This document shows positions 40,683-60,970 of a stretch of 64,000 nt of DNA, piece by piece. The position numbers and the translations under genes are program-made. Under the pieces are notes generated by a model. It saw nothing but the letters and a program-made list of their open reading frames with translations. It had not been told where the DNA came from and did no database searches. The stretch's first letter is position 1. Each line of letters begins with the position of its first letter. Source of the stretch: a bacterium (GTDB lineage Bacteria > Sysuimicrobiota > Sysuimicrobiia > Sysuimicrobiales > Kaftiobacteriaceae); assembly GCA_044868695.1 (NCBI GenBank), contig JBIOWP010000107.1, positions 9,348-73,347 of the forward strand. Reading direction: 5' to 3'.

Positions 40683-40684
40683 CC

Positions 40685-41830: not shown

Positions 41831-42102
41831 CGACCGTCTACGTCCCAACTCCGCTCCGCCGCACGACGGGCGGCCAGGGCAAGGTCCAGCTTGCCGGCCG
41901 CACCGTGCGGGAGTTGCTTGACGCGCTGGAGCGCCGCCATCCCGGCATCCGGCAGCAGGTGTTCGATGAGCGCGGCGAGGTACGCAGCTTCATCAATGTC
42001 TTCGTCAACGGCACCGAGATCCGGCAACTGCAGGGGCTGGCGACGCCCGTGAAAGAGACGGACGAGGTGTCGATCATCCCCGCGATGGCGGGCGGGTTGT
42101 GA
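41827..42102 (+). CDS. cysO: Ubiquitin-like sulfur carrier (CysO/MoaD family) ending GG-L
   Basis: VPTPLRR, FINVFVNG, SIIPAMAGGL; context with cysM and mec. Confidence 0.85.
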   Translation: MTTVYVPTPLRRTTGGQGKVQLAGRTVRELLDALERRHPGIRQQVFDERGEVRSFINVFVNGTEIRQLQGLATPVKETDEVSIIPAMAGGL

Positions 42103-43535: not shown

Positions 43536-43540
43536 CCGGG

Positions 43541-44395
43541 ATGAGAGACAACACGCGCGCCGGCGGGGCGCTGCGGCTTTCAACCGGGCAGTCGTTGCCC
43601 GATTTGCGGATCGTCCCCCGCGCCGAGGTCCATTTGCACGAGGAGACCGATCCGGCCCGCGTGCAGCGGCTGGTCGCGCGCATGCGAGCGGACGGCATCC
43701 TGCGCAATCCGCCGATTGCCGCGCCGCTGCCGGAAGGCGGGTACGTCGTTCTCGACGGAGCCAACCGCAGCACTGCCCTGATGGCGTTTGAGGCGCCGCT
43801 GCTGCTCGTCCAGGTTGTCGACTATCATGATCCCGCGGTCAGGCTCGATGTCTGGCATCACCTGCTGACCGAGCCGGTGGACCTCGGGGCCCTGCTGCGG
43901 TCCAAGGGACTGATCTTGAAGGACATGAGTGTGTCTGAAGCGGCGCAGGCACTGGCCCAGCGCGCGATCGCATGCTACCTGCTGGGTCCTGCCGGAGCCC
44001 GGTCAGTGGCCGCCGCACCGGCCCAGCCGTCCGCGGCGGTTCTCTCGGCGGTTGTGGACGCCTACAAGGCGACAACCCGCATTTACCGCGTGATGGACAC
44101 AGACTTGGATACGCTCGCCCGCGCGTATGGGTCCGTCTCGGCGGTGGTGGTCTTCCCGACCTTCACCAAACGCGACATTCTTGAGATTGCGCGGTCGCCA
44201 GTCAAGCTGCCCGCCGGCATTACGCGGCATCTCATCCCCGGGCGCGCGCTGCGCGTGAATCTGCCGCTCGAGGTCCTGACCTCGCCGGGCGACGCCGAGC
44301 AAAAGAACCGCTGGCTGGTCGAGGAGATTCACCAGCGGCTGCTCGAGAACCGCGTCCGGTACTACCCGGAAGACTCCTTCCTGTTTGATGAGTGA
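43541..44395 (+). CDS. SbnI/SerK-like free L-serine kinase (ParB/Srx fold)
   Basis: LHEETDPAR, LRNP, VLDGANR, VQ...WHH, LPAGITRH..PGRALRVNLPL, VRYYPE, matching motifs I recall from S. aureus SbnI over the full length. Confidence 0.8.
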   Translation: MRDNTRAGGALRLSTGQSLPDLRIVPRAEVHLHEETDPARVQRLVARMRADGILRNPPIAAPLPEGGYVVLDGANRSTALMAFEAPLLLVQVVDYHDPAVRLDVWHHLLTEPVDLGALLRSKGLILKDMSVSEAAQALAQRAIACYLLGPAGARSVAAAPAQPSAAVLSAVVDAYKATTRIYRVMDTDLDTLARAYGSVSAVVVFPTFTKRDILEIARSPVKLPAGITRHLIPGRALRVNLPLEVLTSPGDAEQKNRWLVEEIHQRLLENRVRYYPEDSFLFDE

Positions 44396-45284
44396 GCTGC
44401 TCAACGCCATCGGCAATACGCCGCTGCTGCGCCTAACCCGCGTCACGCGGGATCTGCCGCTGGCGGTTGAAGTGCACGTCAAAGCCGAGTGGTTCAACCC
44501 CGGGGGATCGGTGAAGGACCGTCCGGTGCGCCGGATCATCCTCGACGCGGAGCGCGACGGCCGCCTGTCGCGCGACCGGACCATCCTCGATTCGTCATCC
44601 GGAAACGCCGGCATCGCCTACGCCATGATCGGAGCGGCCCGGGGCTATCGCGTGCGTCTGGTCGTGCCAGGCAACGTCAGCGAGGAACGCAAGCACATCC
44701 TGCGCGCGTACGGCGCGGAGGTGGAATACTCCGATCCGCTAGAAGGGTCGGACGGCGCGATCGTCGTCGCCCGCCGCCTGCACGAGGAGGGCCGCGGCCA
44801 GTTCTTCTACGGCGACCAGTACAGCAATCCCAGCAATCCCCGCGCGCACTACGAGACGACCGGTCCTGAGGTGTTCGCGCAAACCGAGTCGCGCATCACC
44901 CATTTTGTGGCCGCGCTGGGCACCAGCGGGACGATCGTCGGGGCCGGGCGCCGGCTGCGGGAACTGCAGCCGGGCGTGCAGATTGTGGCGGTCGAGCCGG
45001 ACACGGCCCTGCACGGCATCGAGGGATTGAAGCACATGGCCAGCGCGATCGTTCCGGGAATCTATGACCGCTCCGTCCACCACCGCACGATTCCGATGAG
45101 CACGGAGGCCGCCTACGAGATGGCCAGGCGCCTGGCGCGCGAGGAGGGGCTCCTGGTCGGCCAGTCATCCGGCGCCGCGGTGGCGGGCGCTCTGCAGGTG
45201 GCCCGTGAGCTTGAGGAGGGTGTAATCGTCGCGGTCTGCCCTGACGGCGGCGACCGCTACTTGTCGACCGCCCTCTGGAGATAA
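44388..45284 (+). CDS. cysM: Cysteine synthase, CysM type (probably CysO-thiocarboxylate/O-phosphoserine dependent)
   Basis: IGNTPL, NPGGSVKDR, SSGNAG, LGTSGT, IEGLKHM, DGGDRYLST. Confidence 0.9.
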   Translation: MSELLNAIGNTPLLRLTRVTRDLPLAVEVHVKAEWFNPGGSVKDRPVRRIILDAERDGRLSRDRTILDSSSGNAGIAYAMIGAARGYRVRLVVPGNVSEERKHILRAYGAEVEYSDPLEGSDGAIVVARRLHEEGRGQFFYGDQYSNPSNPRAHYETTGPEVFAQTESRITHFVAALGTSGTIVGAGRRLRELQPGVQIVAVEPDTALHGIEGLKHMASAIVPGIYDRSVHHRTIPMSTEAAYEMARRLAREEGLLVGQSSGAAVAGALQVARELEEGVIVAVCPDGGDRYLSTALWR

Positions 45285-45320
45285 AATCGAGCGTTTTCTG
45301 TCGTATAATGGGGGACAACG

Positions 45321-45719
45321 GTGCTGGAACTGAGTCGGGACCAGGCTGCGGCGCTTGTTGCGCACGCCAACGAGGAGTTTCCCAACGAGTGCTGCGGTCT
45401 GCTGGCCGGGCGCAACGGCCGGGTGGAGCGGGTCTACCGGGGCACTAACGTCGATTACAGCCCCTATACGTACCTGATGGATCCCAAAGAGCAACTGGCC
45501 GCGTTCAAGGACATGGAAGCGGCCGGGCTGGACCTGGTAGGGATCTATCACTCGCACACCCACACGGCTGCGTACCCGTCCAAGACCGACGTGGCGAAGG
45601 CGTTCTACCCAGATGTACTCTACATGATCGTATCGCTGGCGAGGCGGGAGACTCCAGAGATCCGGGCATTCCGGTTCTTGGACGCAGAGATCGTCGAAGA
45701 GGACGTGATCATTCGATGA
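45321..45719 (+). CDS. mec: JAB/M67 metallopeptidase (CysO-Cys peptidase Mec-like)
   Basis: PNECCGLL, YHSHTHTAAYPSKTD JAMM motif. Confidence 0.9.
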   Translation: MLELSRDQAAALVAHANEEFPNECCGLLAGRNGRVERVYRGTNVDYSPYTYLMDPKEQLAAFKDMEAAGLDLVGIYHSHTHTAAYPSKTDVAKAFYPDVLYMIVSLARRETPEIRAFRFLDAEIVEEDVIIR

Positions 45720-46141
45720 AAGTGTCCACCCGCGCGGAGTACGGACTGCGGGCGTTGATCGACCTCGCCAGCCACTACGGCGAAGGTCCGGTGCAGACGC
45801 ATCAGATTGCGGCCCGCCAGGGGCTGCCGGAACCCTACCTCAATCAGCTGATGAGTTCCCTCCGGCGCGCAGGCCTGGTGGCCAGCAAGCGCGGACCCGC
45901 GGGCGGGCACGTGCTGGCGCGCGCCCCCGAGGCCATCACCCTCCGCGAGGCCTTCGACGTCCTGGAGGGGTCGACGGCGCCGTGGTGGTGCGTCGAGTCC
46001 GATGATCCCGACTGCGTGTATGCCCACGGCTGCGGGCTGCGGCCGGTGTGGCAGGCGATCAACCAGGCGGTGGAGCGCGTCCTGGGCGAGATGTCGCTCG
46101 CGGATATCTCACGCGTGAGGCAGCCTGCCGGACGCACCTGA
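45716..46141 (+). CDS. Rrf2-family regulator (IscR/CymR-like) with three Cys
   Basis: MKVSTRAEYGLRAL, SKRGPAGG, CVESDDPDCVYAHGC. Confidence 0.93.
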   Translation: MKVSTRAEYGLRALIDLASHYGEGPVQTHQIAARQGLPEPYLNQLMSSLRRAGLVASKRGPAGGHVLARAPEAITLREAFDVLEGSTAPWWCVESDDPDCVYAHGCGLRPVWQAINQAVERVLGEMSLADISRVRQPAGRT

Positions 46142-46162
46142 CCTCGGCAGGCTGCACAGGGG

Positions 46163-46197
46163 CAGGCCAGGGGGCGCCCCTGGCCTGTGTTGTTTTT
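46163..46197 (+). terminator. Rho-independent terminator after Rrf2 gene
   Basis: CAGGCCAGGGG-GCG-CCCCTGGCCTG followed by TGTTGTTTTT. Confidence 0.75.
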
Positions 46198-46213
46198 GGG
46201 CGGGTGGTTCAGG

Positions 46214-46240
46214 GGAATGCGGGCACGGCCCGGGAGCGTT
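46214..46240 (+). promoter_or_regulatory. Autoregulatory SigH/SigR-type promoter GGAAT-N19-GTT
   Basis: GGAAT 46214-46218, GTT 46238-46240, 8 nt before the sigma GTG. Confidence 0.65.
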
Positions 46241-46248
46241 AAGTCGGG

Positions 46249-46896
46249 GTGTCCGCGATGGGAGCAACGACCGTGGTGCCTCTTGAGGCCTCTGTGGCCG
46301 CCGACGACCGGGAACGGTTCCAGGCGCTGGCCGAACAGCACCTCGATGGGCTGTTCAGGGCCGCCCTGCGCCTGACCCGCAACCGCACGAAGGCGGAAGA
46401 TCTCCTGCAGGAAACCTTCCTCCGCGCGTGGCGCTCGTTCCACACCTTCAAACCCGGCACCAACGCGCGCGCCTGGCTCTACAGAATTCTGATGAACGCG
46501 TACATCGATGGGTACCGGAAGACGACTCGCGAGCCGGAAGTCGTCGACCAGGAAGGCGTCGACGAGTTTTACCTGTACACGAAAGTGCAGGAGAGCGATG
46601 ACTTCCGGCGCGCCGGGAATCCCGAGGAAGTGCTCTTGTCCCGGCTCATGGACGCGGACGTCAAGGGTGCGCTCGACAACCTCCCCGACGCCTTCCGCGA
46701 GGTCGTCATCCTGGCCGACATCGAAGGCTTCTCCTACAAGGAAATCGCCGAGATGCTCGCGATTCCCATCGGCACCGTGATGTCGAGGCTGCATCGTGGC
46801 CGGCGGCAGCTGCAGGTCAAACTCTGGGACTACGCCAAGCGGGCGCACTATGTCGGTGCCGACCAGGCGCCTCCGGCGGGGGGTGCCGGCCGATGA
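46249..46896 (+). CDS. ECF sigma factor, SigH/SigR-like
   Basis: AEDLLQETFLRAW, GTNARAWLYRILMN, EGFSYKEIAEML..PIGTVMSRLHRGR. Confidence 0.92.
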   Translation: MSAMGATTVVPLEASVAADDRERFQALAEQHLDGLFRAALRLTRNRTKAEDLLQETFLRAWRSFHTFKPGTNARAWLYRILMNAYIDGYRKTTREPEVVDQEGVDEFYLYTKVQESDDFRRAGNPEEVLLSRLMDADVKGALDNLPDAFREVVILADIEGFSYKEIAEMLAIPIGTVMSRLHRGRRQLQVKLWDYAKRAHYVGADQAPPAGGAGR

Positions 46897-47123
46897 CGGA
46901 CATCGATTGCGAGCAGGTCCTCCAGATGGTCTGGCAGTTCCTCGACGGAGAGATCGACGAGGCCCACTATGTGGAAATCGAAGCCCACATCGCGGGCTGC
47001 TCGCAGTGCGGGCCGCGCTATGAGTTCCAGCGCCGGCTGATGGTGCTGATCGAGCGCAAGTGCAGCGAGGGCCCGGTGCCTGTGGAGCTCAAACGCCGGC
47101 TGTTTCGGCTGCTCGAGGAATAG
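46893..47123 (+). CDS. Zinc-binding anti-sigma factor (RshA/RsrA-like)
   Basis: DCEQV...FLDGE...HIAGCSQC (HxxxCxxC). Confidence 0.92.
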   Translation: MTDIDCEQVLQMVWQFLDGEIDEAHYVEIEAHIAGCSQCGPRYEFQRRLMVLIERKCSEGPVPVELKRRLFRLLEE

Positions 47124-47161
47124 ATCAGCATCGCTAGGGTTGCGGAGGGCAGGAGGTCTCA

Positions 47162-47806
47162 ATGTCTGCCCTCCGCATCTTGCTCGTTGACGACCACCGC
47201 GTCGTGGCCGCCGCGCTGGTCCGCCTTCTGCACGACATCCCTGATGTCGAGGTCGTCGGCGTCGCCGCCACCGGTCCCGACGCGATCGCCCTCACCCGCA
47301 CCCTCCACCCCTCCCTCGTGCTGATGGACATCGGGCTGCCCGGTATGGACGGGGTCGAAGCGACGTGGACCATCCGTCGCCAGTTCCCGGACGTGCAGGT
47401 CCTGATCCTCACAATGTTCGACCAGGACGCCTTCGCCATCGAGGCGCTGCGCGCCGGCGCCGCGGGCTACCTGCTGAAGACTGTGGCGCCGGAAGACCTG
47501 GCCCGCGCGATCCACACGGTCTGCAGCGGCGAGGGGCTGATCTACTCCGGCGGGCCCGCCGCCGGGCTGGGCCGGGCCGTTTCCGCCCGAGGCCGGCTGG
47601 GCGACCCCTACGCGCTGTCCCGCCGAGAACTGCAGATCCTGCAGCTCGTGGCGGCAGGATTTGATGCCGCGGATATTGCCCGCCAGCTGCTCCTCAGCCC
47701 CCACACCGTCCGGAACCACCTGAAATCCACCTATCGGAAGCTGGGCGTCCGCGGCCGCGTCGAGGCGGCCGCCTATGCCGTCAGGCGGGGCCTCATTAAG
47801 ACGTAA
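47162..47806 (+). CDS. NarL/LuxR-family response regulator
   Basis: VDDH, LMDIGLP, GYLLK, LSRRELQIL...HTVRNH. Confidence 0.94.
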   Translation: MSALRILLVDDHRVVAAALVRLLHDIPDVEVVGVAATGPDAIALTRTLHPSLVLMDIGLPGMDGVEATWTIRRQFPDVQVLILTMFDQDAFAIEALRAGAAGYLLKTVAPEDLARAIHTVCSGEGLIYSGGPAAGLGRAVSARGRLGDPYALSRRELQILQLVAAGFDAADIARQLLLSPHTVRNHLKSTYRKLGVRGRVEAAAYAVRRGLIKT

Positions 47807-47906
47807 CTGCGGAACGTAGGATTGACTCGACTGAGTCATCCATGGCTAGCCCATTCGGGTCTGGGCGAGTTTCCGGTGGATGGTCCATTCTCTAAAACGA
47901 GGCATC

Positions 47907-48296
47907 ATGCCTGAGGACCTGACGTTGATCACCGGAGTGGCCGAGCCGATCGCGGGTTCAGAGCCCGCCCTGGACCGCCTGCCGGTCCGCCTGGACGGGG
48001 AAATCCGCCTGCTGCCGGTAGGGAACGTCCTCTACTGCTACGCCGACGGCGACCGGACGATGCTGGTCACCCGGGCCGGGGAACTGCGCAGCCACCTCTG
48101 CCTGACCCGGCTGGCGGAGCGGCTGGAGCCCTTTCGCTTCTTCCGCTGCCACCGGGCGTACCTTGTAAACCTCGACCACGTCTGCAGCGTCATCCCCTGG
48201 ACCCGCAACGCCTTCAGCCTAACCCTGGAAGGTGGGAAGGAGATTCCGCTCAGCAAACACCGCCTTCCGGCTCTGAAAGAACTTCTTGGCTGGTAG
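47907..48296 (+). CDS. Stand-alone LytTR DNA-binding domain protein
   Basis: FFRCHRAYLVNL, EIPLSKHR. Confidence 0.88.
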   Translation: MPEDLTLITGVAEPIAGSEPALDRLPVRLDGEIRLLPVGNVLYCYADGDRTMLVTRAGELRSHLCLTRLAERLEPFRFFRCHRAYLVNLDHVCSVIPWTRNAFSLTLEGGKEIPLSKHRLPALKELLGW

Positions 48297-48331
48297 ACTC
48301 GACAGACTCGACAGATCCGATAGACAGTCAG

Positions 48332-49351
48332 TTAGTGTGCCTTGGCTGCCGCCTTTTCTTTGTGTTCCATAATCGAGGAGGAGTGGCCGGGGAAGGCTGA
48401 GGCGCTGGGGTTGATGTAGGTGACCGCGTTGTTCACGGCGGTGGCGGCCTCGCCGAACCCTGTCACGATGAGCTTGAGCTTGCCGGGGTAGGTCGCGATG
48501 TCGCCCGCCGCGTACACGCCGGGGACGTTGGCCTCCATCTTGCTGTTGACCACGATCGAGTCGTCCTTGATCTCCAGGCCCCACTCGCGGATCGGACCCA
48601 GGTTGCTGACCAGCCCCAGGAAGGCCAGGACGGCGTCGACGGGCAGCACCTCGTCGCCCTGGGTCTTGTTGTTGAAGACTACCGCCTCGCGGACCTGCGT
48701 GTCCCCGCGGATGCCGCGTAGCTCGTAAAACACCTTGACCTTGATCGGCGAGGCAAACAGCTTCTTCACGCTGTCCTCGTGGGCACGAAAGCCATCGCGG
48801 CGGTGAATCAAGGTGATCTGCTTCGCGTAGTCCACCAGGCCGAGCGCCCAGTCCAGCGCGGAGTCTCCGCCGCCGATGACCAGCAGCCGCTTCCCCCGGA
48901 AATCTTCCTTCTGGCGCACAGCGAAGTACAATCCCTTGCCGATCCACTGATCGAGTTCCGCCCGCTTGAACGTCTTGGGGGTAAAGGCGCCGATCCCGGC
49001 GGTGATGAGGGTCACCCGTGTTCGATGCTCGCCCAGGTCCGTGCCCAGCCGGATCGTTCCGTCGGGCAGACGGTCGAGCGTGTGGACGTTCTCGTTCAAC
49101 TGCACCGTTGGATGGTAGGTCATCCCCTGCTCGACCAGATTTGTCACGAGGTCCTTCCCCAGGATCTTGGGGAAGCCGGCGACGTCGTAGATGAACTTGT
49201 CGGGGTACAGAGCGGTTACCTGACCGCCCAGGTCCGGCTGGCTGTCGATCAGCTTGGTGCGCAGCCCCCGAAACCCCGCATAATACGCGGCGAACAGCCC
49301 GGTCGGTCCGGCGCCGATGATGGTGACGTCGTACAGATCTGCCTGTGTCAT
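48332..49351 (-). CDS. Ferredoxin-NADP+ reductase, TrxB-like (YumC type)
   Basis: IGAGPTG, GGQVTALYPDKFIYDVAGF, GGGDSALDW, YPGKLKLI, PGHSS; no CxxC. Confidence 0.92.
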   Translation of the reverse strand: MTQADLYDVTIIGAGPTGLFAAYYAGFRGLRTKLIDSQPDLGGQVTALYPDKFIYDVAGFPKILGKDLVTNLVEQGMTYHPTVQLNENVHTLDRLPDGTIRLGTDLGEHRTRVTLITAGIGAFTPKTFKRAELDQWIGKGLYFAVRQKEDFRGKRLLVIGGGDSALDWALGLVDYAKQITLIHRRDGFRAHEDSVKKLFASPIKVKVFYELRGIRGDTQVREAVVFNNKTQGDEVLPVDAVLAFLGLVSNLGPIREWGLEIKDDSIVVNSKMEANVPGVYAAGDIATYPGKLKLIVTGFGEAATAVNNAVTYINPSASAFPGHSSSIMEHKEKAAAKAH

Positions 49352-49487
49352 CGCTCGGATTATATCATTCCCAAAATTCGGCCGGGCAGGGCGCCGGCGG
49401 TCTGGCGCGAAGATACCCCCGCTTCCGAGCGCATGGTAAAATCGAATCTGTAGTCTACAAGTCAAGAATCGTGCGCAGGAGGCAGGC

Positions 49488-50681
49488 ATGACTCTGACAG
49501 CCCGCCCGGGCCCGCTTCTGGCCAAGGATCAGATCGAGCGGTACTCCCGCCAGACGATCCTTGAAGAGATCGGCGTCGCGGGGCAGCGCAAACTCTTGGA
49601 CAGCAGGGTGCTGATCGTCGGCGCCGGAGGACTGGGCAGCCCGTCGGCCATCTACCTCGCCGCGGCCGGGATCGGCACGCTGGGTATCGTGGACGGCGAC
49701 CGCGTCGATCTCTCCAACCTCCACCGCCAGGTGATGCACTTCACGCACGACATCGGCAGGCCGAAGACCCAGTCCGCGCGGCGGACGCTGGAGGACATCA
49801 ATCCCGACGTCACCGTCGTCCCGCACCAGACGGTCCTGACCAGCGAGAACGCGATGGACATCATTTCAGACTATGACCTCGTCATCAACGGCAGCGACAA
49901 CTTCCCGACGCGCTATCTGGTCAACGACGCGACCGTCATGTTGCGCAAGCCGCTCGTCGACGCCAGCATTCTGAAGTGGGAGGGGCAGGCCACCGTCTTC
50001 CTGCCGGGCCACGGCTGCTACCGCTGCCTGTTTCCCACGCCGCCGCCTCCGGGGACGGTGCCCAGCTGCGCCGAGGGCGGAATCGTCGGCGCGCTCGCGG
50101 GCTTCATGGGAACGCTGCAGGCGGTGGAGGCCATCAAGATCCTCGTCGGCAAGGGTGAGACGCTGGCCAACCGCCTGTTCATCTACGACGCGCTGATCGG
50201 CGAGATCCGCACGCTGCGCTGGAACCGGAATCCGGATTGCCCGGTGTGCGGCGACCACCCGACGGTCACCCAGCTCATCGATTACGAGGCCTTCTGCGGC
50301 GTGCCCGGTCGCGAGCCGTCGCATGCGCCCGCGGTCGCCGTGGCGCGCACGCCGGAGGTGTCCGTGGCCGAGGCGAAGGCGATGCTGGACCGCGGCGAGG
50401 CCCAACTGGTTGATGTGCGGGAAGTCTGGGAGTGGGTGACCGCCCGCATTCCCGGCGCCGCGCTGATTCCGATGGGCGAGCTGGCCCAGCGCATCTCGGA
50501 AATCCCCAAGGATCGCACCGTGATCATTCACTGCGCCACCGGGCAGCGCAGCGCTACTGTGACGGATGCGCTGCGCGACGCCGGATATGCCCAGACGTTC
50601 AACCTGGCCGGTGGGATCGTGGCGTGGATGAACGAACAACTACCGGTGGAAGCGGGGCCGCCCGAGAAACACCAACCGTGA
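49488..50681 (+). CDS. moeZ: MoeB/MoeZ sulfur-carrier adenylyltransferase with C-terminal rhodanese
   Basis: ERYSRQ, GAGGLGSP, SNLHRQ, CYRC, CPVC, HCATGQRS. Confidence 0.93.
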   Translation: MTLTARPGPLLAKDQIERYSRQTILEEIGVAGQRKLLDSRVLIVGAGGLGSPSAIYLAAAGIGTLGIVDGDRVDLSNLHRQVMHFTHDIGRPKTQSARRTLEDINPDVTVVPHQTVLTSENAMDIISDYDLVINGSDNFPTRYLVNDATVMLRKPLVDASILKWEGQATVFLPGHGCYRCLFPTPPPPGTVPSCAEGGIVGALAGFMGTLQAVEAIKILVGKGETLANRLFIYDALIGEIRTLRWNRNPDCPVCGDHPTVTQLIDYEAFCGVPGREPSHAPAVAVARTPEVSVAEAKAMLDRGEAQLVDVREVWEWVTARIPGAALIPMGELAQRISEIPKDRTVIIHCATGQRSATVTDALRDAGYAQTFNLAGGIVAWMNEQLPVEAGPPEKHQP

Positions 50682-50832
50682 CCAGGGACCGGGCACCAGG
50701 GACCAGAAACCAGCCTCATACATTTCTCATGCGCGGCGAAGGAGTCGGCTCGTGACGTCTGACGGGCAAAGCGCCCAAACGACAGCTGTTTCCACCAGGT
50801 CTCGGGTCCCTGGTCCCCGGTCCCAGTCAGTT

Positions 50833-51870
50833 ATGCGTCAGGCGATCCTGCGCGAGCCGCGGCAAATTGAGCTCATCACCCGTCCCGTTCCCATGCCGGG
50901 GCCGGGGGAAGTGCTGCTGCGCGTGCGCGCCGCGCTCACCTGCGGGACCGATCTGAAGACCTACCGCCGCGGGCATCCGAAGGTGCCGTTCGGCCCATTC
51001 GGCCATGAGTGCGCCGGCGACGTTGCCGCGGTGGGCCGCGGGGTCCATCACATCCGTGAGGGCGACGCGGTGGCGCCGACGCCCACGGCACCCTGCGGCG
51101 TCTGCTCGTCCTGCCGGCGCGGCCGCGAGAACCTCTGCGAAAGCCAGTTTGAAGGCATCGTGCTCGGCGCGTACGCGGACTACCTCCTGGTGTCCGCGAG
51201 GGTCGCGGCCAGACACCTGCTCCGCAAGCCTGAGGGCCTGTCGTACATTGAGGCCGCGTTCCTGGAGCCGCTCTCGTGTGTCATCCACGCGTGGGAGCGC
51301 CTGCGCCCCCGTCCGGTCGAGCAGGTCGCCGTGGCCGGGCTGGGTGCAATCGGACTGCTGCACATCAAAATGGCGAAAGCCGCGGGAGCGCGCGTCATTG
51401 CGGTCGGCCGCCGCCAGGAGCGCCTCGACCTCGCGGCGCGGCTGGGCGCCGACGCGGTCGTGGACACGCAGCAGCCGGGGGTCGCCGAGCAAGTCCACGA
51501 GCTTACCGGCGGTCTCGGGCCCGATCTGGTCATCGAGTGCACGGGGAGCCCCGCGCTGTGGGTGGAGTCCCCGCGGTGGGCCGCTCCGGGCGGCCGCGTC
51601 GTCTTGTTCGCCGGCCTGGCGGCCGGCACGCAGGTCGCGTTCGACGCGACCCGGCTGCACTATGAGGAAGTGGATATCATCAACACGTTCCACTACAGGC
51701 CGCGTGACGTGGACGAGGCCCACCACCTGCTCGCGACCGGCGGCGTGGATGTGCGGCCGCTGGTGAGCGGGGTCAAGGAACTCACCAACATCATCGACGT
51801 GTTCGCTTCGCTCGACCGCGGCAACGGAGTGAAGTACGCTATTCTTCCCGAGGCGACGGCGTGGGCGTAG
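50833..51870 (+). CDS. Zn-dependent medium-chain dehydrogenase (NADP(H)-type signature)
   Basis: CGTD, GHE, CGVCSSC...C, GLGAIG, VGRR instead of acidic residue after beta-B. Confidence 0.9.
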   Translation: MRQAILREPRQIELITRPVPMPGPGEVLLRVRAALTCGTDLKTYRRGHPKVPFGPFGHECAGDVAAVGRGVHHIREGDAVAPTPTAPCGVCSSCRRGRENLCESQFEGIVLGAYADYLLVSARVAARHLLRKPEGLSYIEAAFLEPLSCVIHAWERLRPRPVEQVAVAGLGAIGLLHIKMAKAAGARVIAVGRRQERLDLAARLGADAVVDTQQPGVAEQVHELTGGLGPDLVIECTGSPALWVESPRWAAPGGRVVLFAGLAAGTQVAFDATRLHYEEVDIINTFHYRPRDVDEAHHLLATGGVDVRPLVSGVKELTNIIDVFASLDRGNGVKYAILPEATAWA

Positions 51871-52919
51871 AAAGTCTGCGCGCGGCCGCGGCCACCAGCA
51901 CCCGCGCCGTTGTCTATCACACCTCCGACGACCTCCGCCTGGAAGATGTGCCCCTGCCCGGCATCAAGGCAGGCGAGCTCCTTGTACGCATCCGGGCCTG
52001 CGGCCTGTGCCCCGGCGAGGCAATGGGCTGGTACATGGCGCGCAAGGCGCCGCTGGTTCCCGGCCACGAGCCGGTGGCCGAAGTCGTACAGGCCGGCGCG
52101 CAGGTGACCGGGTTTGCGCCCGGCGACCGTATCTTCGTCCATCACCACGCGCCCTGCCTGACCTGCCGGTCCTGCCGGCGCGGGGACTACGTGCACTGTC
52201 CCACTTTTCGCCGGACGAAGCTCGTGCCGGGCGGCCTGTCGGAGTTTGCAATCGTCCCGGAAGAGATCGTGCGCGGCGACGTGCTGCGAATTCCCGACGG
52301 GCTGTCCGATGAGGCCGCGACGTTTGTCGAGCCCCTGGCATGTGTGGTGAAGGCAGTCCGCCGCGCGGGCATGGCTCCCGGCGACCGGGTGCTGGTCATC
52401 GGTCTGGGCGTCATGGGGATGCTGCACGTGATGTTGGCCCGCAGGCTGGGAGTGGACCTCCTCATCGGCGCCGACCGCGTGCCGTCTAGGCTGGCCCGTG
52501 CCGCAGGCAGCGGCGCGCACGCCGTCGTTGATGTAACACGCGAGTCGCTGGACGAAGCGGTGCGGGCCCGCACCGATGGGCAGGGCGCCGACGTTGTCAT
52601 CGTCGGACCGGGAACGGTCGAGGCGATGGACCTCGGATTTCGCTGCGTCGCCCCCGGAGGCACGCTGGTGCTGTTTACGCCTACGCCGCCCGGCGTGGTC
52701 TGGCCGTTCAACGCTCACGATGCGTACTTCCGTGAAATCCAGATCGTGCCGAGCTACTCTGCGGGTCCGCCGCAGACGGAGGAAGCGCTGCAGTGGCTGG
52801 CGGACGGCCTGCCGGTAGAGACGCTTGTCACGCACCGGTACTCTCTGGATGGCGCCGCAGAGGGGTATCGCCTGGTGCGCGAAGCTACTGAGGCTCTGAA
52901 AGTCGTGGTCAGGCCGTGA
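51861..52919 (+). CDS. Zn-dependent medium-chain dehydrogenase (NAD(H)-type signature)
   Basis: CPGE, GHE, CLTCRSC...C, GLGVMG, GADR. Confidence 0.9.
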   Translation: MGVESLRAAAATSTRAVVYHTSDDLRLEDVPLPGIKAGELLVRIRACGLCPGEAMGWYMARKAPLVPGHEPVAEVVQAGAQVTGFAPGDRIFVHHHAPCLTCRSCRRGDYVHCPTFRRTKLVPGGLSEFAIVPEEIVRGDVLRIPDGLSDEAATFVEPLACVVKAVRRAGMAPGDRVLVIGLGVMGMLHVMLARRLGVDLLIGADRVPSRLARAAGSGAHAVVDVTRESLDEAVRARTDGQGADVVIVGPGTVEAMDLGFRCVAPGGTLVLFTPTPPGVVWPFNAHDAYFREIQIVPSYSAGPPQTEEALQWLADGLPVETLVTHRYSLDGAAEGYRLVREATEALKVVVRP

Positions 52920-53530
52920 ACGAGCACCCCGAGGACAGCAGCTGCGAATTGCCCGGCGCCGCGCCGCAGGACGGGCGTCGGCACCGGCGGTTCGACGGAG
53001 CGGCGTGGGACGGCGTCACGCCCCAGGTGTACAAGCTCGGCGGAGCCGCGGCCCCGGGGGCCGGCTGGCGGGACGTCATTCGCCACACGCTGCTCGGCGG
53101 TGCGGGCGAGCCCGCGGCGTTTCAGCTGCGCTACTTCGAGATCGCGCCCGGCGGATACTCGAGTCTGGAAAAGCATAGGCACGTGCACTCGATTGTCGTA
53201 CTGCGCGGTGCCGGCACCGTGATCGTCGGCCGCGACGTGTTCGACGTGGGGCCGCTCGACCTGGTGTACGTTCCCCCGGAGGCACCCCACCAGTTCGTGA
53301 ACGCGGGATCCGAGCCGTTCGGGTTCCTGTGCCCGGTGGACGCCGACCGCGACCCGCCGCAACCCCTCACCGCAGAGGAACTGCGCGCCTTGCTGGACGA
53401 TCCCAAGGTCCGCCAGGCCGTGCGGATTGGAGAAACTACGGGACCAGGGACCAGGGACCTGGGACCTGAGGCGGTTGCTGAGAAGAGTCGTTACTGGTCC
53501 CCGGTCCCGGGTCCCCGGTCCCGCATTTGA
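52916..53530 (+). CDS. Cupin resembling methylthioxylulose-5-phosphate methylsulfurylase (Rru_A2000 type)
   Basis: WDGV...YK, LRYFEIAPGGYSSLEKHRHVH, HQF, GFLCPVDADRDPPQP; C-tail formed by heptamer repeats. Confidence 0.75.
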   Translation: MNEHPEDSSCELPGAAPQDGRRHRRFDGAAWDGVTPQVYKLGGAAAPGAGWRDVIRHTLLGGAGEPAAFQLRYFEIAPGGYSSLEKHRHVHSIVVLRGAGTVIVGRDVFDVGPLDLVYVPPEAPHQFVNAGSEPFGFLCPVDADRDPPQPLTAEELRALLDDPKVRQAVRIGETTGPGTRDLGPEAVAEKSRYWSPVPGPRSRI

Positions 53531-55894: not shown

Positions 55895-56815
55895 ATGGAG
55901 GATTTTCCCCTGAAAGGGGTATGGTTCTACGATCGCTATACGGCGGCTGAGGTTCATGCGCACCGCTGCGGGCCGATCATCGCACGCGCCCGCACGCAGT
56001 ATCAGGACGTCGTGATCCAGGAATTCGACCACCTCGGCCGTTGTCTGGTGGTCGACGGCAAAATCCAATCCGCCGAAATCGACGAGTACATCTATCATGA
56101 GCTCCTCGTCCATCCGGCGATGATCGCCCACCCGAACCCCCGCCGGGTGCTGGTCTGCGGGGGCGGCGAGGGCGCACCGCTGCGGGAGATCCTCCGGCAT
56201 CTGACGGTGGAGTCCGTCGTCATGATGGACATCGACCGGGAGCTCGTGGCGCTGTGCCGGGAACACCTGTCGTCCTGGCACGCCGGCGCCTTCGATGACC
56301 CCCGCGTGCAGGTGCGCCACGGGGACGCCCGGGCGTACGTGGAACAGAGTCGCGACCGCTTCGATGTTGTGATCAACGACATCACCGATCCCATCGAAGG
56401 CGGCCCCAGCAAGATGCTGTTCACCCGGCAGTTCTACGCTGCCGTCGCCAAGGTCCTCAATCCCGACGGCATCTTTGTCACGCAGGCCATCGGCGTCCAC
56501 TACGACGCGGTCGACCGGCTGCACGCCGCCATCCACCGGACGGTCCGCGAGGTCTTCCCGCATGCGCGCTCCTACTGCGACTACGTCATGTCATTCGACT
56601 ACCCGTGGGCCTTCGTGGCGGGATCGCGTCAGACGGTGTGGGACCGCCTGAGCGCGCCGGAGGTGGACCGCCGCCTCCACGCGCGGAGTATCACCCTGCG
56701 CTTTTACGACGGCGAGACGCACATGCGCGTGATGAACCTGCCCAAGCCCCTGCGGAAACTCATCGCGGACGAAAAGACAATCATTACCGACGAAGAACCA
56801 CTCATCGTCGAGTGA
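55895..56815 (+). CDS. speE: Polyamine aminopropyltransferase (GGGEG type, Thermus SpeE-like)
   Basis: [30 protein letters not shown]. Confidence 0.93.
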
Positions 56816-57973: not shown

Positions 57974-59854
57974 TTGGGACTCGGGACTGGTAAGAAATCT
58001 CACCCATTCCTCGCGCGTCTCGATGGCGGCGTGTTGCTCGCCGACGGCGCGATGGGCACGCTGCTGTATGCCCGCGGCGTGGCGTTCGACCAGTGCTTTG
58101 ACGAGCTAAACCTCAGCCGTCCCGACGTGGTCCGCCAGATCCACCTGGACTACATCGACAGCGGGGCCGGCCTGATCGAAACCAACACCTTCGGCGCCAA
58201 CCGGTTCAAGCTCGCCCAGCACAACCTGGCGCACCGCCTGGCCGAGATTAACCGCGCCGGCGCGGCCCTCGCCCGCGAGGCGGTCGGAAACCGCGAGGTG
58301 TTCGTGGCCGGGTCGATGGGCCCGATCGGCCGGCCCATGGCGCCCCTCGGCACCGTCGCCGCGGAGGAAGTGCGCGACGCGTACGCGGAGCAGGCGGCCG
58401 CGCTGGTCGAGGGCGGGGCGGACGTGCTGATTTTGGAAACGTTCACCGATCTTAGTGAACTGTTGGAGGCTGTTCGCGGAGTACGGTCCGCGGCCACCGT
58501 GCCGGTCATAGCGCAGATGACCTTTACACAGGAAGGCAAGACACTGCTGGGCCACGCGCCGGCTGAGATCGTACGGGCCCTGGAGCGGCTCAAGGTGGAA
58601 GTCGTCGGCGCGAACTGCAGCGTGGGCTCCCAGGGCATCCTGGAGGTCATGCAGCAGATGGCGGATGCGGCGACGTCCGCGAAGCTCTCTGCGATGCCCA
58701 ACGCCGGCTTCCCCGCGTTCGTCGGCGGCCGCTACATCTACTTCTCGACCCCGCCGTACATGGCAGGCTATTCTAGACAACTGGCCGCGCTGGGCGTGCG
58801 CGTCATCGGCGGATGCTGCGGGACAACCCCCGAGCACATTGCGGCCATGCGCGAGGCGCTGGCAAGGCCGGCGGCCGGGCCGGGCCTGTCAATTCCTGGG
58901 GACCTGCGCCCATCGCGCCCGGCACCTGAGCCGGAGACCGCTCCGGCGCCTGCCGTCCGGCCTCAAGCACCGACCACGCTGGCCCAGAAGCTCGGCAAGG
59001 CGTTTGTGATTTCCGTCGAGATCGATCCGCCCCGGGGCGTGCACGATCGCCGGGAGCTGGACGGGTGCCGCCGCTTGAAGGAAAGCGGCGTGGATGTCAT
59101 CGACGTCGCCGACAACCCGATGGCGAGGCTGCGGATGAGCCCGTGGGCGATGTGCTCACGCATCCAGTCCGAGGTCGGCATCGAGACGGTGCTGCACTTT
59201 ACGACGCGCGATCGCAACCTGGTCCGGCTGCAGTCCGACCTCCTGGCTGTACACGCCCTGGGCGTGCGCAACGTGCTCGTCCTGCGCGGGGATCCCCCAC
59301 AGATGGGCGACTACCCGAATGCGACCGCGGTGTCCGATGTCAAACCTTCAGGGCTCGTCCGGCTGATAAAGGACTTCAACCAGGGCCGCGATGTAGCGGG
59401 TAACGCCATCGGGACGCCGACTGCGTTCACCGTCGGCGTCGCGCTCAACCTGGCCGCCCCCGATCTGAGCAAGGAAGCGAAGGCTCTGGAACGCAAGGTG
59501 GAGGCCGGGGCCGACTTCATCTGCACGATGCCTATCTACGAGCCCGAGGCGCTGGATCGGTTCGCCCGCCTGACGAGGCTGCCGGTGCCGGCGCTGGTGG
59601 GGGTACTGCCCCTGGTCAGCCACCGCCACGCGGAGTTCCTGCACAACGAACTGCCTGGATTTTCCGTCCCGGCCTGGGTCCGGGAACGCATGCGCTTGGC
59701 GCACGACGCGCGCGAGGAAGGGATTCGCATCGCCCTAGAACTGGTAGAAGCCATCCGTCCCCTCGTCGGCGGCGTGTACCTGATCCCGTCGTTCGGCCGG
59801 TACGACGCCGTACTGGAACTCGTCCGCCTTGCGCGCCAACCCGCGAAAACCTAA
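57974..59854 (+). CDS. Bifunctional homocysteine S-methyltransferase / methylenetetrahydrofolate reductase (YitJ-like)
   Basis: DGAMGT, TNTFGAN, GANC, GGCCGTTPEH; C-half EIDPP, HFTTRDRN, LHNELPG; start uncertain (inside a repeat). Confidence 0.92.
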   Translation: MGLGTGKKSHPFLARLDGGVLLADGAMGTLLYARGVAFDQCFDELNLSRPDVVRQIHLDYIDSGAGLIETNTFGANRFKLAQHNLAHRLAEINRAGAALAREAVGNREVFVAGSMGPIGRPMAPLGTVAAEEVRDAYAEQAAALVEGGADVLILETFTDLSELLEAVRGVRSAATVPVIAQMTFTQEGKTLLGHAPAEIVRALERLKVEVVGANCSVGSQGILEVMQQMADAATSAKLSAMPNAGFPAFVGGRYIYFSTPPYMAGYSRQLAALGVRVIGGCCGTTPEHIAAMREALARPAAGPGLSIPGDLRPSRPAPEPETAPAPAVRPQAPTTLAQKLGKAFVISVEIDPPRGVHDRRELDGCRRLKESGVDVIDVADNPMARLRMSPWAMCSRIQSEVGIETVLHFTTRDRNLVRLQSDLLAVHALGVRNVLVLRGDPPQMGDYPNATAVSDVKPSGLVRLIKDFNQGRDVAGNAIGTPTAFTVGVALNLAAPDLSKEAKALERKVEAGADFICTMPIYEPEALDRFARLTRLPVPALVGVLPLVSHRHAEFLHNELPGFSVPAWVRERMRLAHDAREEGIRIALELVEAIRPLVGGVYLIPSFGRYDAVLELVRLARQPAKT

Positions 59855-59866
59855 ACTACGAAAGGC

Positions 59867-59959
59867 GGGATCAGGGAACAGGGATTAGGGATTAGGGATT
59901 AGACGACGACTGGTGACGTGTGCGAAGTATCTGCTCCCTAATCCCTACTCCCTAATCCC
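59867..59959. repeat. Inverted pair of GGGATTA-type heptamer arrays
   Basis: GGGATCA GGGAACA GGGATTA x3 ... CCCTAAT CCCTACT CCCTAAT. Confidence 0.8.
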
Positions 59960-59983
59960 GCAGTTGTACCTAGGAGGGCTCGC

Positions 59984-60970
59984 TTGATCACAACGGTCAT
60001 CGGCAACTATCCCAAAATCCCTGATCTGCCAGCGCCGGGCAAGTGGCGCAGCGCGGTCGAGAAACTGCAGAAGGGTCAGATCACGGAGGCCGACCTGCGG
60101 AAGGTGGAAGACGAGGTCACGCTGGAGGCGATCCGGGACCAGGTGGACGCCGGCGTGGACCTCATCACCGACGGGCAGATCCGCTGGGAAGACGCCCCGA
60201 CCTACTTTGCCCGCCGGCTCCGCGGGCTTTCGGTCAACGGGCTGCAGCGCTACTTCGACACCAACATCTACTTCCGCGAACCGCTGGCCGAGGGGGAGGT
60301 GAAGTGGGTCGAACCGATCTCAGTGCGCGACTTCGAGTTTGCTAGAGCCAACAGTCCCAAGCCGGTCAAACCCGTCATCACGGGTCCCTTCACGCTGGCG
60401 AAGCTCAGCCGGAACACCTTCTACCGGTCGCCCCGCGAGTTCACGCTCGCGCTGGCCCGCGCGCTCAACGCCGAGCTGCGTGCCCTGCAAGCGGCAGGGG
60501 CCGAGATTATCCAGGTGGACGAGCCGGCGCTCTGCGGCCACAAGCAGGACTACCCGCTGTTCGCCGAGGCGATGACCATTCTCACGGATGGGGTCAAGGC
60601 GACGAAGGTCCTCGCCACCTACTTTGGCGACGTCGGCAGCATCTACCCGCAGATCCTCGAGCTCCCCTTTGAGGTGATCGGATTGGACTTCGTGGCCGGC
60701 TACCGCAACTGGGACGCGGTGAAGCGCACCCCGTTCACCAAGTCCTTGATGTTCGGCATTCTCGACGCCCGCAACACGCGGCTGGAGACCGTGCATGAAC
60801 TCGTGCAGGCCATCCGCCGCGCGACGGACGTCGTCCCCGCGGACCGCCTCATGGTCGCTCCCAGTGCCGGGCTGGAGTTCCTGCCCCACGGGGTCGCACG
60901 GAAGAAACTGCAGCGGCTCGTCGAGGGAACACGGGCTGCTGGCCAGGCGTTGAAGGGAGCACGCGCATGA
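59984..60970 (+). CDS. Split MetE, non-catalytic half
   Basis: ITDGQIRW, RYFDTNIYFR, QVDEP, ATYFG (no HxC), PSAGLEFLP (no Cys). Confidence 0.85.
   Translation: MITTVIGNYPKIPDLPAPGKWRSAVEKLQKGQITEADLRKVEDEVTLEAIRDQVDAGVDLITDGQIRWEDAPTYFARRLRGLSVNGLQRYFDTNIYFREPLAEGEVKWVEPISVRDFEFARANSPKPVKPVITGPFTLAKLSRNTFYRSPREFTLALARALNAELRALQAAGAEIIQVDEPALCGHKQDYPLFAEAMTILTDGVKATKVLATYFGDVGSIYPQILELPFEVIGLDFVAGYRNWDAVKRTPFTKSLMFGILDARNTRLETVHELVQAIRRATDVVPADRLMVAPSAGLEFLPHGVARKKLQRLVEGTRAAGQALKGARA

Follow-up and report, generated by a model that had tools for sequence, protein, structure and literature searches.

Three overlapping genes in the window, the whole 64,000-nucleotide stretch of DNA analysed here, probably encode an MTA-isoprenoid shunt which does without a RuBisCO-like protein (RLP); the probability of this reading is put at roughly 0.7. 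Two zinc-dependent medium-chain dehydrogenases/reductases, MDR1 and MDR2, would together carry out the net conversion, in whichever order, and a cupin of the Rru_A2000 type would complete the trio. Such an isomerisation by a dehydrogenase pair was the core of the original prediction. The gene content, adjacency, co-occurrence, and conserved residues reported below were observed directly and support it, and the enzymatic steps are proposed on this basis.

The Three Genes and Their Products

Inspection of the open reading frames placed the genes for MDR1, MDR2, and the cupin consecutively on the forward strand, overlapping as had been predicted. MDR1 (50752..51870, +) can be read as an ATG-started frame from 50833 to 51870, with an alternative in-frame GTG upstream at 50752. 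As a GAAGGAG motif lies 7 nucleotides ahead of this GTG and the closest relatives have a similar N-terminal extension, the GTG appears to be the likelier start. The start of MDR2 (51861..52919, +) overlaps the end of MDR1 by 10 nucleotides, and the cupin gene (52916..53530, +) shares the letters GTGA with MDR2; the GC3 of the three frames is 0.80–0.87. The translations contain LRYFEIAPGGYSSLEKHRHVH and GFLCPVDADRD in the cupin, VGRR in MDR1, and GADR in MDR2.

The cupin, a Cupin_2 protein, has its best matches of known structure in 3IBM (E 9.5e-31), 3JZV, which is Rru_A2000 (E 2.7e-28), and 3KGZ, the next entry listed being at 1.3e-6. Its likeness to the R. rubrum methylsulfurylase, which had been claimed to include the cysteine of the FLC motif, was thereby confirmed: C139 aligned to the cysteine of GFLC in 3JZV, which we take to be the catalytic C121 of Rru_A2000. 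Residues E85, H87, H91, H125, and C139 proved to be invariant in 28 homologs, and the protein, with metal ligands and active-site cysteine present, is assigned by its sequence to the Rru_A2000 (1-methylthioxylulose-5-P methylsulfurylase) type. Enzymes of this type are described as requiring a xylulose-type substrate for which RLP is the sole known supplier (PMC5893883). Paralogs of the family also stand in unrelated contexts, one of them being a second copy within the same genome, and a cupin gene on a Thiodictyon plasmid has neither RLP nor MDR genes nearby.

Both dehydrogenases combine a GroES-like and a Rossmann domain (Pfam ADH_N and ADH_zinc_N) and have the Cys/His/Glu ligands of the catalytic zinc and the four cysteines of the structural zinc found in the polyol/threonine dehydrogenase branch of Zn-MDRs. 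In MDR1, which forms a clade of its own (29 rows, support 99), the ligands of both zincs are conserved in the alignment, and GRR follows strand beta-B in the present protein. In MDR2 residues C50, H69, E70, E157, W57-Y58, and an HHH motif are invariant among homologs, an acidic residue follows beta-B in those tree rows for which the motif was printed, and the clade is sister to LsrF-linked MDRs (53 rows, support 99; one of the trees used is a quick IQ-TREE calculation and the other a FastTree one). The two motifs after beta-B had been read as NADP-type for MDR1 and NAD-type for MDR2; they are present as described, but MDR1 of Chloroflexota and Actinomycetota is acidic at this position, and a universal NADPH/NAD+ split between the two families was therefore rejected. 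Both proteins score far below every NCBIfam cut-off for the Tdh, IolM, GatD, and IdnD equivalogs (best 163 versus 450 bits), and neither the ESM Atlas, the PDB sequence search, nor the plasmid search yielded a characterised ortholog.

Gene Content of the Host and Gene Neighbourhood

The host genome is 95% complete and Sysuimicrobiota-like. As the original prediction anticipated, it encodes MtnA (TIGR00512, 441.9 against a cut-off of 279) and MtnP (TIGR01694, 298.9 against 274.85), on contigs C89 and C91 and hence not on that of the trio. No RLP was found in it by PF00016 (0 matches) or by tblastn with a cupin-linked RLP, and the acireductone dioxygenase family (MtnD/ARD, PF03079) was found in none of five genomes, the host included. 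Of the downstream MEP steps, Dxr at 444 (cut-off 316) and IspG, above its cut-off, are present. For the usual DXP synthase, Dxs, the best score in the host genome was 133 against a cut-off of 466; HMG-CoA reductase was not found there either. A single-chain transketolase-like protein is encoded in the same genome. When the MetY sequence of a Solirubrobacteraceae locus (L100, see below) was used as query, the best match in the host was the cystathionine-lyase-type gene of the window, at 36%, and the MetX query gave no match.

The upstream neighbour of MDR1 encodes a MoeB/MoeZ-type E1 with a rhodanese domain (49488..50681, +); such a neighbour occurs in 17 of 80 cupin loci, is conserved in Sysuimicrobiota only, and is probably not part of the pathway. 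SpeE, the polyamine aminopropyltransferase that produces MTA (55895..56815, +; NF002010 259.7, cut-off 260), and two MetE-like genes with YitJ at 57974–61956 lie 2.4–8.5 kb from the trio, in agreement with the distance of about 10 kb originally given. As evidence for a pathway this proximity is weak, since speE stands near the cupin gene in 11 of 80 loci, all of close relatives sharing a syntenic block, and MetY and MetX were not found.

Distribution of the Trio

Among 94 Sysuimicrobiota genomes, orthologs of both the cupin and MDR1 occur in 60, the cupin only in 1, MDR1 only in 6, and neither in 27; in 56 of the 60 the two genes lie within 5 kb on the same contig. Dxr is present in 88 of the 94 genomes and Dxs in 2, both of them trio-less, so the usual DXP synthase is almost entirely lost from this phylum. 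Since 22 genomes encode Dxr while lacking both Dxs and the trio, 14 of them at ≥90% completeness and ≤5% contamination and one of these (G080) 100% complete, another source of DXP exists in the phylum, and it may serve the host genome too. RLP of form-IV level also occurs in 10 of the 60 trio genomes; five phylum RLPs examined are 25–30% identical to cupin-linked RLP and seemingly stand in sugar-kinase contexts, the neighbours being labelled from sequence only.

The cupin is also carried by 50 other genomes examined, almost all of them outside the phylum; MDR2 was found in 44, MDR1 in 42, and both in 40. RLP occurred in none of them, the five PF00016 matches scoring 445–451 bits like true RuBisCO, and the anti-correlation with RLP that had been suggested as a check thus appears in other phyla as near-exclusion. 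Dxs is present in 20 of these 50, Kryptonia and Solirubrobacterales among those retaining it, and a strict anti-correlation of trio and Dxs is not seen outside Sysuimicrobiota. In 121 Acidobacteriota genomes, a sample not selected by cupin, 3 of the 5 genomes having the MDR pair contained the cupin, versus 4 of the 116 others; Dxs-less genomes showed no enrichment of MDR2-type genes (13 of 52 versus 10 of 69 in the rest, p = 0.17). As kin do not count as independent, p-values of this sort overstate the significance. An MDR pair without detected cupin was met in G146 and G238, and a cupin without MDR pair or adjacent RLP in G163 and G197.

Linkage to MTA genes, which had also been proposed as a check, was found in other phyla. 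In the Solirubrobacteraceae locus L100 the genes metY-metX-mtnK-mtnA-MDR2-MDR1 are convergent on the cupin gene, and metY, metX, mtnK, and mtnA all score above their NCBIfam cut-offs; this locus reads as the whole shunt with the MDR pair in the place of RLP. Of 15 Thermoleophilia loci chosen for inspection, 12 have the order mtnA-MDR2-MDR1, 7 of them with mtnK; L149–L153 show this order and do not constitute an independent arrangement. Linkage of the MDR pair to mtnA is known from this one lineage. In Thermoflexus MDR1 and MDR2 are separated and each adjoins its own Rru_A2000-type cupin gene. RLP lies directly upstream of the cupin gene on a Terrarubrum plasmid and in G211, and in the latter genome neither MDR1 nor MDR2 was found.

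Proposed Pathway and Alternatives

The substrates, cofactors, direction, and order of the trio reactions are inferred as follows. MtnP and MtnA would convert MTA to 5-X-ribulose-1-P (X = SCH3), and probably 5'-deoxyadenosine likewise (X = H). MDR2 would oxidise C4 with NAD+ to the 3-hydroxy-2,4-dione 5-phosphate, which for X = H would be P-HPD, the substrate of LsrF, and MDR1 would reduce the phosphate-proximal ketone (the old C2) with NAD(P)H to 1-X-xylulose-5-P. The net result of both steps would be a 1,3-carbonyl shift equal to that of RLP. Using a thiol, the cupin would then take off the methylthio group, yielding DXP and methanethiol; it could alternatively work on the dione, which would leave the net result unchanged. 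For X = H the MDR pair alone would lead directly to DXP. Feeding into Dxr and IspG, this would probably be a major or the main isoprenoid entry in the Dxs-less host. The course through the dione, oxidation before reduction, is given somewhat less than an even chance. It keeps the original assignment of MDR2 to C4 and MDR1 to C2 and inverts the original sequence of reduction before oxidation.

This order is favoured because the sister clade of MDR2 pairs with LsrF instead of MDR1. Of the Acidobacteriota loci fetched, 15 of 20 have a member of the clade adjoining LsrF, as do 60 of 80 metagenome loci, the three LsrF partners tested scoring 413–420 bits (cut-off 297), and MDR1 was found in none of 20 genomes of this or a related kind. 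LsrF splits P-HPD to yield DHAP plus acetyl-CoA (PMC6410053), and on chemical grounds P-HPD would be the C4-oxidation product of 5-deoxyribulose-1-P; a dione-forming MDR2 step would share a P-HPD-type intermediate with the LsrF lineages. The clade on which this argument rests is about 37% identical to MDR2. One locus (L249) has the order mtnA-lsrF-x-MDR-x-mtnP, the only one of 80 in which the LsrF type is linked to mtnA and mtnP, and several loci of the type are archaeal-looking, with a prenyltransferase just under its cut-off (NF009523, 266.8 versus 269).

The same pathway in reverse order, in which MDR1 would reduce C2 to 5-X-D-arabitol-1-P and MDR2 would oxidise C4 with NAD+ to 1-X-xylulose-5-P, is rather unlikely. 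All evidence at the level of the pathway applies to it equally, Fischer-projection reasoning gives D-arabitol-1-P the configuration that links D-ribulose-1-P and D-xylulose-5-P, an unstable reductone intermediate would be avoided, and, for MDR1 proteins bearing GRR, the succession of NADPH and NAD+ would drive the shift. E. avium and B. methanolicus have arabitol-1-phosphate dehydrogenases that convert arabitol phosphate to xylulose 5-phosphate and back (PMC6685057). The LsrF-partnered, MDR1-less sister clade needs, however, a C4 dehydrogenase accepting a ketose, MDR1 of Chloroflexota and Actinomycetota looks NAD-type, and the gene order mtnK-mtnA-MDR2-MDR1 hints slightly at oxidation first.

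Unlikelier still is a product other than DXP, with a related SAM-derived sugar phosphate taking a detoxifying or catabolic exit on which the cupin would strip the methylthio group and the carbon would reach central metabolism. MetY not being found in the host would suit this, as would the trio-less relatives which cope without Dxs, the lack of association with Dxs loss in Acidobacteriota, and the Dxs retained in Kryptonia and Solirubrobacterales. It is at odds with the characterised homologs of the cupin, which yield DXP (PMC5893883), and with a host in which LsrF stays below cut-off (best 160 versus 297) and the class II aldolase matches are not near mtnA.

That the MDRs are ordinary polyol or sugar dehydrogenases travelling with a cupin isomerase and unrelated to MTA is improbable. 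In favour of it, the structures closest to them in the PDB are those of sorbitol, xylitol, and threonine dehydrogenases, the trio is surrounded in Sysuimicrobiota by sulfur and Fe-S genes of a housekeeping kind, and mtnA and mtnP lie on other contigs. Against it, these PDB matches reach 160–233 bits versus >420 for most orthologs, the named or larger clusters of neighbours, as read from sequence, show no recurrent sugar transporter, kinase, or regulator, and the operons with mtnK, mtnA, metY, and metX and the near-exclusion with RLP speak for MTA. Least probable is an exchange of sites, the trio still replacing RLP with MDR2 acting phosphate-proximally (between DXP and P-HPD) and MDR1 distally, which implies that LsrF and an MDR2-like enzyme form a de novo DXP synthase (acetyl-CoA and DHAP to P-HPD to DXP) or a DXP-degrading route; this would explain the DXP supply of G061 and G062, which have Dxr, lsrF, and an MDR2-like gene without trio or Dxs, and in G238 the MDR pair has dxs at a distance of about 1 kb, but Dxs also occurs in 8 of 15 Acidobacteriota with lsrF and an MDR2-like gene, the cassette of L249 is flanked by mtnA and mtnP, DXP is unnecessary for isoprenoids in the archaeal-looking loci, and MDR2 has the NAD-type acidic residue in the rows with motif printed.

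Implications and Comparison with Known Systems

One compilation lists 181 species with the MEP pathway and without Dxs, four of which (three Chloracidobacterium and Thermodesulfovibrio yellowstonii) have the cupin and no RLP (PMC10663253). The origin of DXP in such bacteria is a stated question, to which the trio would be a two-enzyme, testable answer for that genotype. In a wider and distinctly tentative view, MDR2-type enzymes might mark a hitherto undescribed, oxidative branch point in the metabolism of SAM waste, the dione being cleaved by LsrF to DHAP and acyl-CoA in some lineages and re-reduced by MDR1 to (methylthio)DXP in others, with the MDR1 branch as first isoprenoid step in most Sysuimicrobiota, probably Blastocatellia (sampled here other than Chloracidobacterium), Fimbriimonadales, and other Dxs-less MEP bacteria. 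Such cells would then build isoprenoids from the ribose of SAM. The trio would also give terpenoid engineering a DXP entry independent of thiamine and pyruvate, represent a biological source of methanethiol that is new, and assign a role to two widespread, so far unassigned MDR families and, beyond quorum sensing, to LsrF genes.

The closest known system is the MTA-isoprenoid shunt of R. rubrum and Rhodopseudomonas palustris, consisting of MtnP (or Pfs with MtnK), MtnA, the DeepYkr RLP Rru_A1998/RPA2169, the cupin Rru_A2000/RPA2170, for which glutathione or another thiol accepts the methylthio group, and O-acetylhomoserine sulfhydrylase, which recaptures the methanethiol. The entry enzymes, the cupin type with its aligned cysteine, and the predicted products DXP and methanethiol are alike, and the MDR pair occupies the position of RLP in RLP-cupin loci. 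In contrast, two Zn-MDRs would perform the 1,3-carbonyl shift by redox chemistry in a host without RLP, and the sulfhydrylase MetY, like MetX, was not found in the host and was met in Solirubrobacteraceae. R. rubrum has Dxs (PMC4334135); as the host has none, the route may be essential there and not a shunt.

E. avium APDH and B. methanolicus AtlD, compared by description only, are D-arabitol-phosphate dehydrogenases, enzymes of the MDR family; converting arabitol phosphate to xylulose 5-phosphate and back, they carry out the kind of reaction required at C4. Each works singly in catabolism downstream of a PTS, and its substrates are pentitol phosphates without a substituent. With LsrG/LsrF of the E. 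coli lsr (AI-2) system the trio would share P-HPD as type of intermediate, and LsrF partners the sister clade of MDR2, whereas the host has no true LsrF and its dione would be made by a dehydrogenase instead of LsrK/LsrG and be re-reduced, not cleaved. Universal methionine salvage, which uses the dehydratase MtnB and the acireductone dioxygenase MtnD, differs by the latter, not found in the host. The DHAP shunt (MtnK/MtnP, MtnA, and the class II aldolase Ald2/DrdA) has the same branch point, 5-X-ribulose-1-P, and likewise uses MTA and 5'-deoxyadenosine; it cleaves between C3 and C4 to DHAP and an aldehyde, whereas the trio would keep all five carbons as DXP.

Gene Content of the Locus and of Its Genome

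Two zinc medium-chain dehydrogenases/reductases and a cupin overlap on the plus strand, in agreement with the original prediction: MDR1 (50752 or 50833–51870), MDR2 (51861–52919), and the cupin (52916–53530). Both MDRs contain ADH_N and ADH_zinc_N domains with catalytic and structural zinc ligands kept, and neither reached the cut-off of any curated equivalog model. The top solved relatives of the cupin are 3IBM, 3JZV (Rru_A2000, E 2.7e-28), and 3KGZ, the remaining cupins scoring 1.3e-6 or weaker. Its C139 was aligned to the cysteine of the GFLC motif in the structure-database sequence match, so that the proposed resemblance to the R. rubrum methylsulfurylase, including this cysteine, was borne out. 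E85, H87, H91, H125, and C139 are invariant across 28 aligned homologs. The nearest named relatives are CSP1-3/Sysuimicrobiota metagenome-assembled genomes, and the host was accordingly assigned to this phylum. The suggested NADP-type motif of MDR1 holds in Sysuimicrobiota, Blastocatellia, and Kryptonia, but is absent from MDR1 of Chloroflexota and Actinomycetota. An acidic residue follows beta-B in the MDR2-type sequences listed for this motif.

A second Rru_A2000-type cupin (55% identical) is encoded outside the window in the same genome (contig C40, 27372–27890) with no MDR nearby; in some relatives (loci L068 and L079) such a paralog precedes the trio by about 8.7 kb, next to genes of ferritin-like and rhodanese-like sequence. 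The sulfur block at 40583–50681 of the window contains cystathionine lyase-like, MoaD/CysO-like carrier, CBS, CysM-like, JAMM/Mec-like, Rrf2, and MoeZ-rhodanese genes, all labels but MoeZ being read from sequence; it appears to resemble sulfur-carrier cysteine synthesis, and its rhodanese may serve the cupin as methylthio acceptor. At 59984–61956, downstream of a YitJ-type fusion, a tandem pair of short MetE-like genes forms a split archaeal-type cobalamin-independent methionine synthase.

In the host genome (95.08% complete) MtnA, MtnP, Dxr, and IspG each scored above cut-off, and no RuBisCO or RuBisCO-like protein (RLP), acireductone dioxygenase, or HMG-CoA reductase was found, as had been expected for mtnA and mtnP without RLP. 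LsrF yielded nothing over cut-off there, MtnK, MetY, and MetX were not found, and the best Dxs score was 133 bits against a cut-off of 466, from a transketolase-like ORF. According to PMC5893883 and PMC4334135, RLP isomerises 5-methylthioribulose-1-phosphate to 1-methylthioxylulose-5-phosphate in the known shunt, and the cupin then forms DXP. As MtnA and MtnP are present, with RLP and acireductone dioxygenase not found, 5-methylthioribulose-1-phosphate would be made without a known use; likewise, with Dxr and IspG but no Dxs found, the genome needs DXP without known DXP synthesis.

Distribution of the Trio

In a sample of 94 genomes of the phylum the cupin was found in 61 and an MDR1 ortholog in 66, counting matches from 260 bits upward and three fragments at contig edges with 52% identity or more; 60 have both, one the cupin only, six MDR1 only, and 27 neither. 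In 56 of the 60 both genes lie on one contig at most 5 kb apart. Dxr occurs in 88 of the 94 genomes and in 54 of 54 good ones; Dxs was above cut-off in two of the 94, neither with the trio, with no more than 11 candidates scored in each genome. A straightforward account is countered by 22 genomes in which Dxr occurs without Dxs or trio; 14 of these are good genomes (at least 90% complete, at most 5% contaminated), G080, G085, and G091 among them. MDR2-type genes and LsrF were absent from those of the 14 that were tested, which points to a further DXP source.

Among cupin loci of GTDB genomes, 41 of the best 80 have an MDR within the fetched flank. From these 80 loci came 50 genomes that neither name nor gene context marked as Sysuimicrobiota (Thermoflexus, Dehalococcoidia, Kryptonia, Fimbriimonadales, Blastocatellia, Thermoleophilia, one Bacillota, and others), a set selected for likeness to the window cupin; one of them (G110) turned out to carry a Sysuimicrobiota-type gene block. 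Profile searches gave MDR2 in 44 of the 50 (at least 325 bits) and MDR1 in 42, divergent matches of 268–285 bits being counted only if adjacent to MDR2; 40 have both MDRs and four neither. Dxs was above cut-off in 20, with fragments in three more. The anticipated anticorrelation with RLP was seen here, with no RLP-level match in the 50 (RuBisCO-level matches of 445–451 bits occur in five); in the phylum, 10 of the 16 genomes with PF00016 (16/94) carry the trio. Five phylum RLPs examined have 25–30% identity to a cupin-linked RLP and apparently lie beside sugar kinases and isomerases, as labelled from sequence. Form-IV-level RLPs of Sysuimicrobiota (loci L122–L128) adjoin genes resembling PfkB kinases and xylose isomerase, and probably belong to a route of sugar catabolism not yet characterised; in the part of PMC11604079 available, form IV RuBisCO is recorded for two families and Dxs is not mentioned. 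The canonical RLP-cupin pair was found on a Terrarubrum plasmid and in an Acidobacteriota genome (G211), the latter with neither MDR1 nor MDR2 found. In Thermoflexus MDR1 adjoins one cupin paralog and MDR2 another.

Of 15 Thermoleophilia loci inspected, all one lineage, 12 show co-occurrence with mtnA in the order mtnA-MDR2-MDR1. A Solirubrobacteraceae locus (L100) has the order metY, small gene, metX, mtnK, mtnA, MDR2, MDR1, convergent on the cupin, with metY, metX, mtnK, and mtnA all above cut-off. That the trio is another exit for SAM waste is an unlikely reading, and ordinary polyol metabolism is quite improbable.

In 121 Acidobacteriota genomes sampled independently of the cupin, MDR2-type genes were found in 23, where misses are likely because only 17 candidates were scored per genome, Dxs in 69, and the cupin in seven. 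These tallies include the unpublished genome G167, positive for MDR2-type and Dxs; without it they are 22/120 and 68/120, and the conclusions do not depend on it. The MDR1-MDR2 pair occurs in five, with the cupin in three of the five versus 4/116 others. MDR2-type genes showed no enrichment in Dxs-less Acidobacteriota (13/52 versus 10/69, p = 0.17). At one locus (L164, G238:C199:3687-8658) some 1 kb separates dxs from a divergent MDR1-MDR2 pair, and a single opposite-strand gene occupies this interval; in the genome G026, dxr is 3.7 kb from MDR1.

MDR2-Like Genes Linked to LsrF

In 15 of 20 fetched Acidobacteriota loci the MDR2-like gene is preceded by one for a class I aldolase fold, and the aldolase-fold gene passed the LsrF model in all three cases tested. 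In a FastTree phylogeny the LsrF-linked MDRs form a clade of 16 rows (support 99) that is sister to MDR2 (joint clade of 53 rows, support 99), MDR1 being a separate clade of 29 rows (support 99). MDR1 was found in none of 20 genomes of the LsrF-linked type or genus g21, two weak matches being the MDR2-like genes themselves. The trio-less phylum genomes G061 and G062 have lsrF and an MDR2-like gene. Eighty metagenome loci with the LsrF-linked type contain lsrF in 60, the cupin in none, and one weak MDR1 match (79 bits). One of the 80 (L249:972-5849, a 34% GC contig) reads mtnA-lsrF-x-MDR2-like-x-mtnP, a candidate oxidative route from 5'-deoxyadenosine to DHAP and acetyl-CoA. Four loci with the MDR2-like gene on 33–36% GC contigs (L210, L216, L221, L233) are probably archaeal; lsrF lies upstream in the first three, and an archaeal-type prenyltransferase directly follows the MDR2-like gene in three of the four.

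Proposed Reaction

The MDR pair performs the net shift from ribulose-1-phosphate to xylulose-5-phosphate with a probability of roughly 70%. MDR2-type enzymes would oxidise C4 of 5-X-ribulose-1-phosphate (X = SCH3 or H) with NAD+, a cofactor suggested by the acidic residue that follows beta-B in the sequences listed, to a dione, which would be either cleaved by LsrF or reduced by MDR1 at the phosphate-proximal carbon to 1-X-xylulose-5-phosphate. LsrF converts P-HPD, a 3-hydroxy-2,4-dione 5-phosphate, and CoA to DHAP and acetyl-CoA (PMC6410053), and C4 oxidation of 5-deoxyribulose-1-phosphate should yield P-HPD. We infer this as the simplest joint reading of the trio and LsrF loci; that oxidation comes first is held tentatively. 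The original prediction had MDR1 reduce C2 before MDR2 oxidises C4; the sites stand, but the LsrF-linked sister clade of MDR2 favours the opposite order. Reduction first, via 5-X-arabitol-1-phosphate and with each enzyme acting on the same carbon, poses no stereochemical problem, and arabitol-phosphate dehydrogenases offer a precedent (PMC6685057); it is unlikely, and a net shift with the two sites exchanged is very improbable. Use of the MDR pair independently of the cupin is plausible because a review mentions a DXP route from 5'-deoxyadenosine (PMC8791446).

Comparison with Known Pathways

Neither a dehydrogenase-based replacement of RLP nor a link of LsrF to the MTA-isoprenoid pathway appeared in the literature searched, which has subscription journals mostly outside its scope and includes accessible parts of PMC5893883, PMC6302742, PMC10663253, PMC4334135, PMC10986504, PMC8791446, PMC13001223, PMC11604079, PMC6685057, PMC6410053, and bioRxiv 2021.05.17.444423; it leaves out Erb 2012, Warlick 2012, Povelainen 2003, and Marques 2014, which could mention such clusters. 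PMC10663253 (File S1, Table S2) reports 181 species in which Dxs alone is missing, four of them with the cupin and without RLP, and does not settle the mechanism; the trio makes this question of the missing Dxs testable with two enzymes. The host genome falls outside strict membership of the MTA-isoprenoid shunt, having neither RLP nor MetY, but the trio would work like it.
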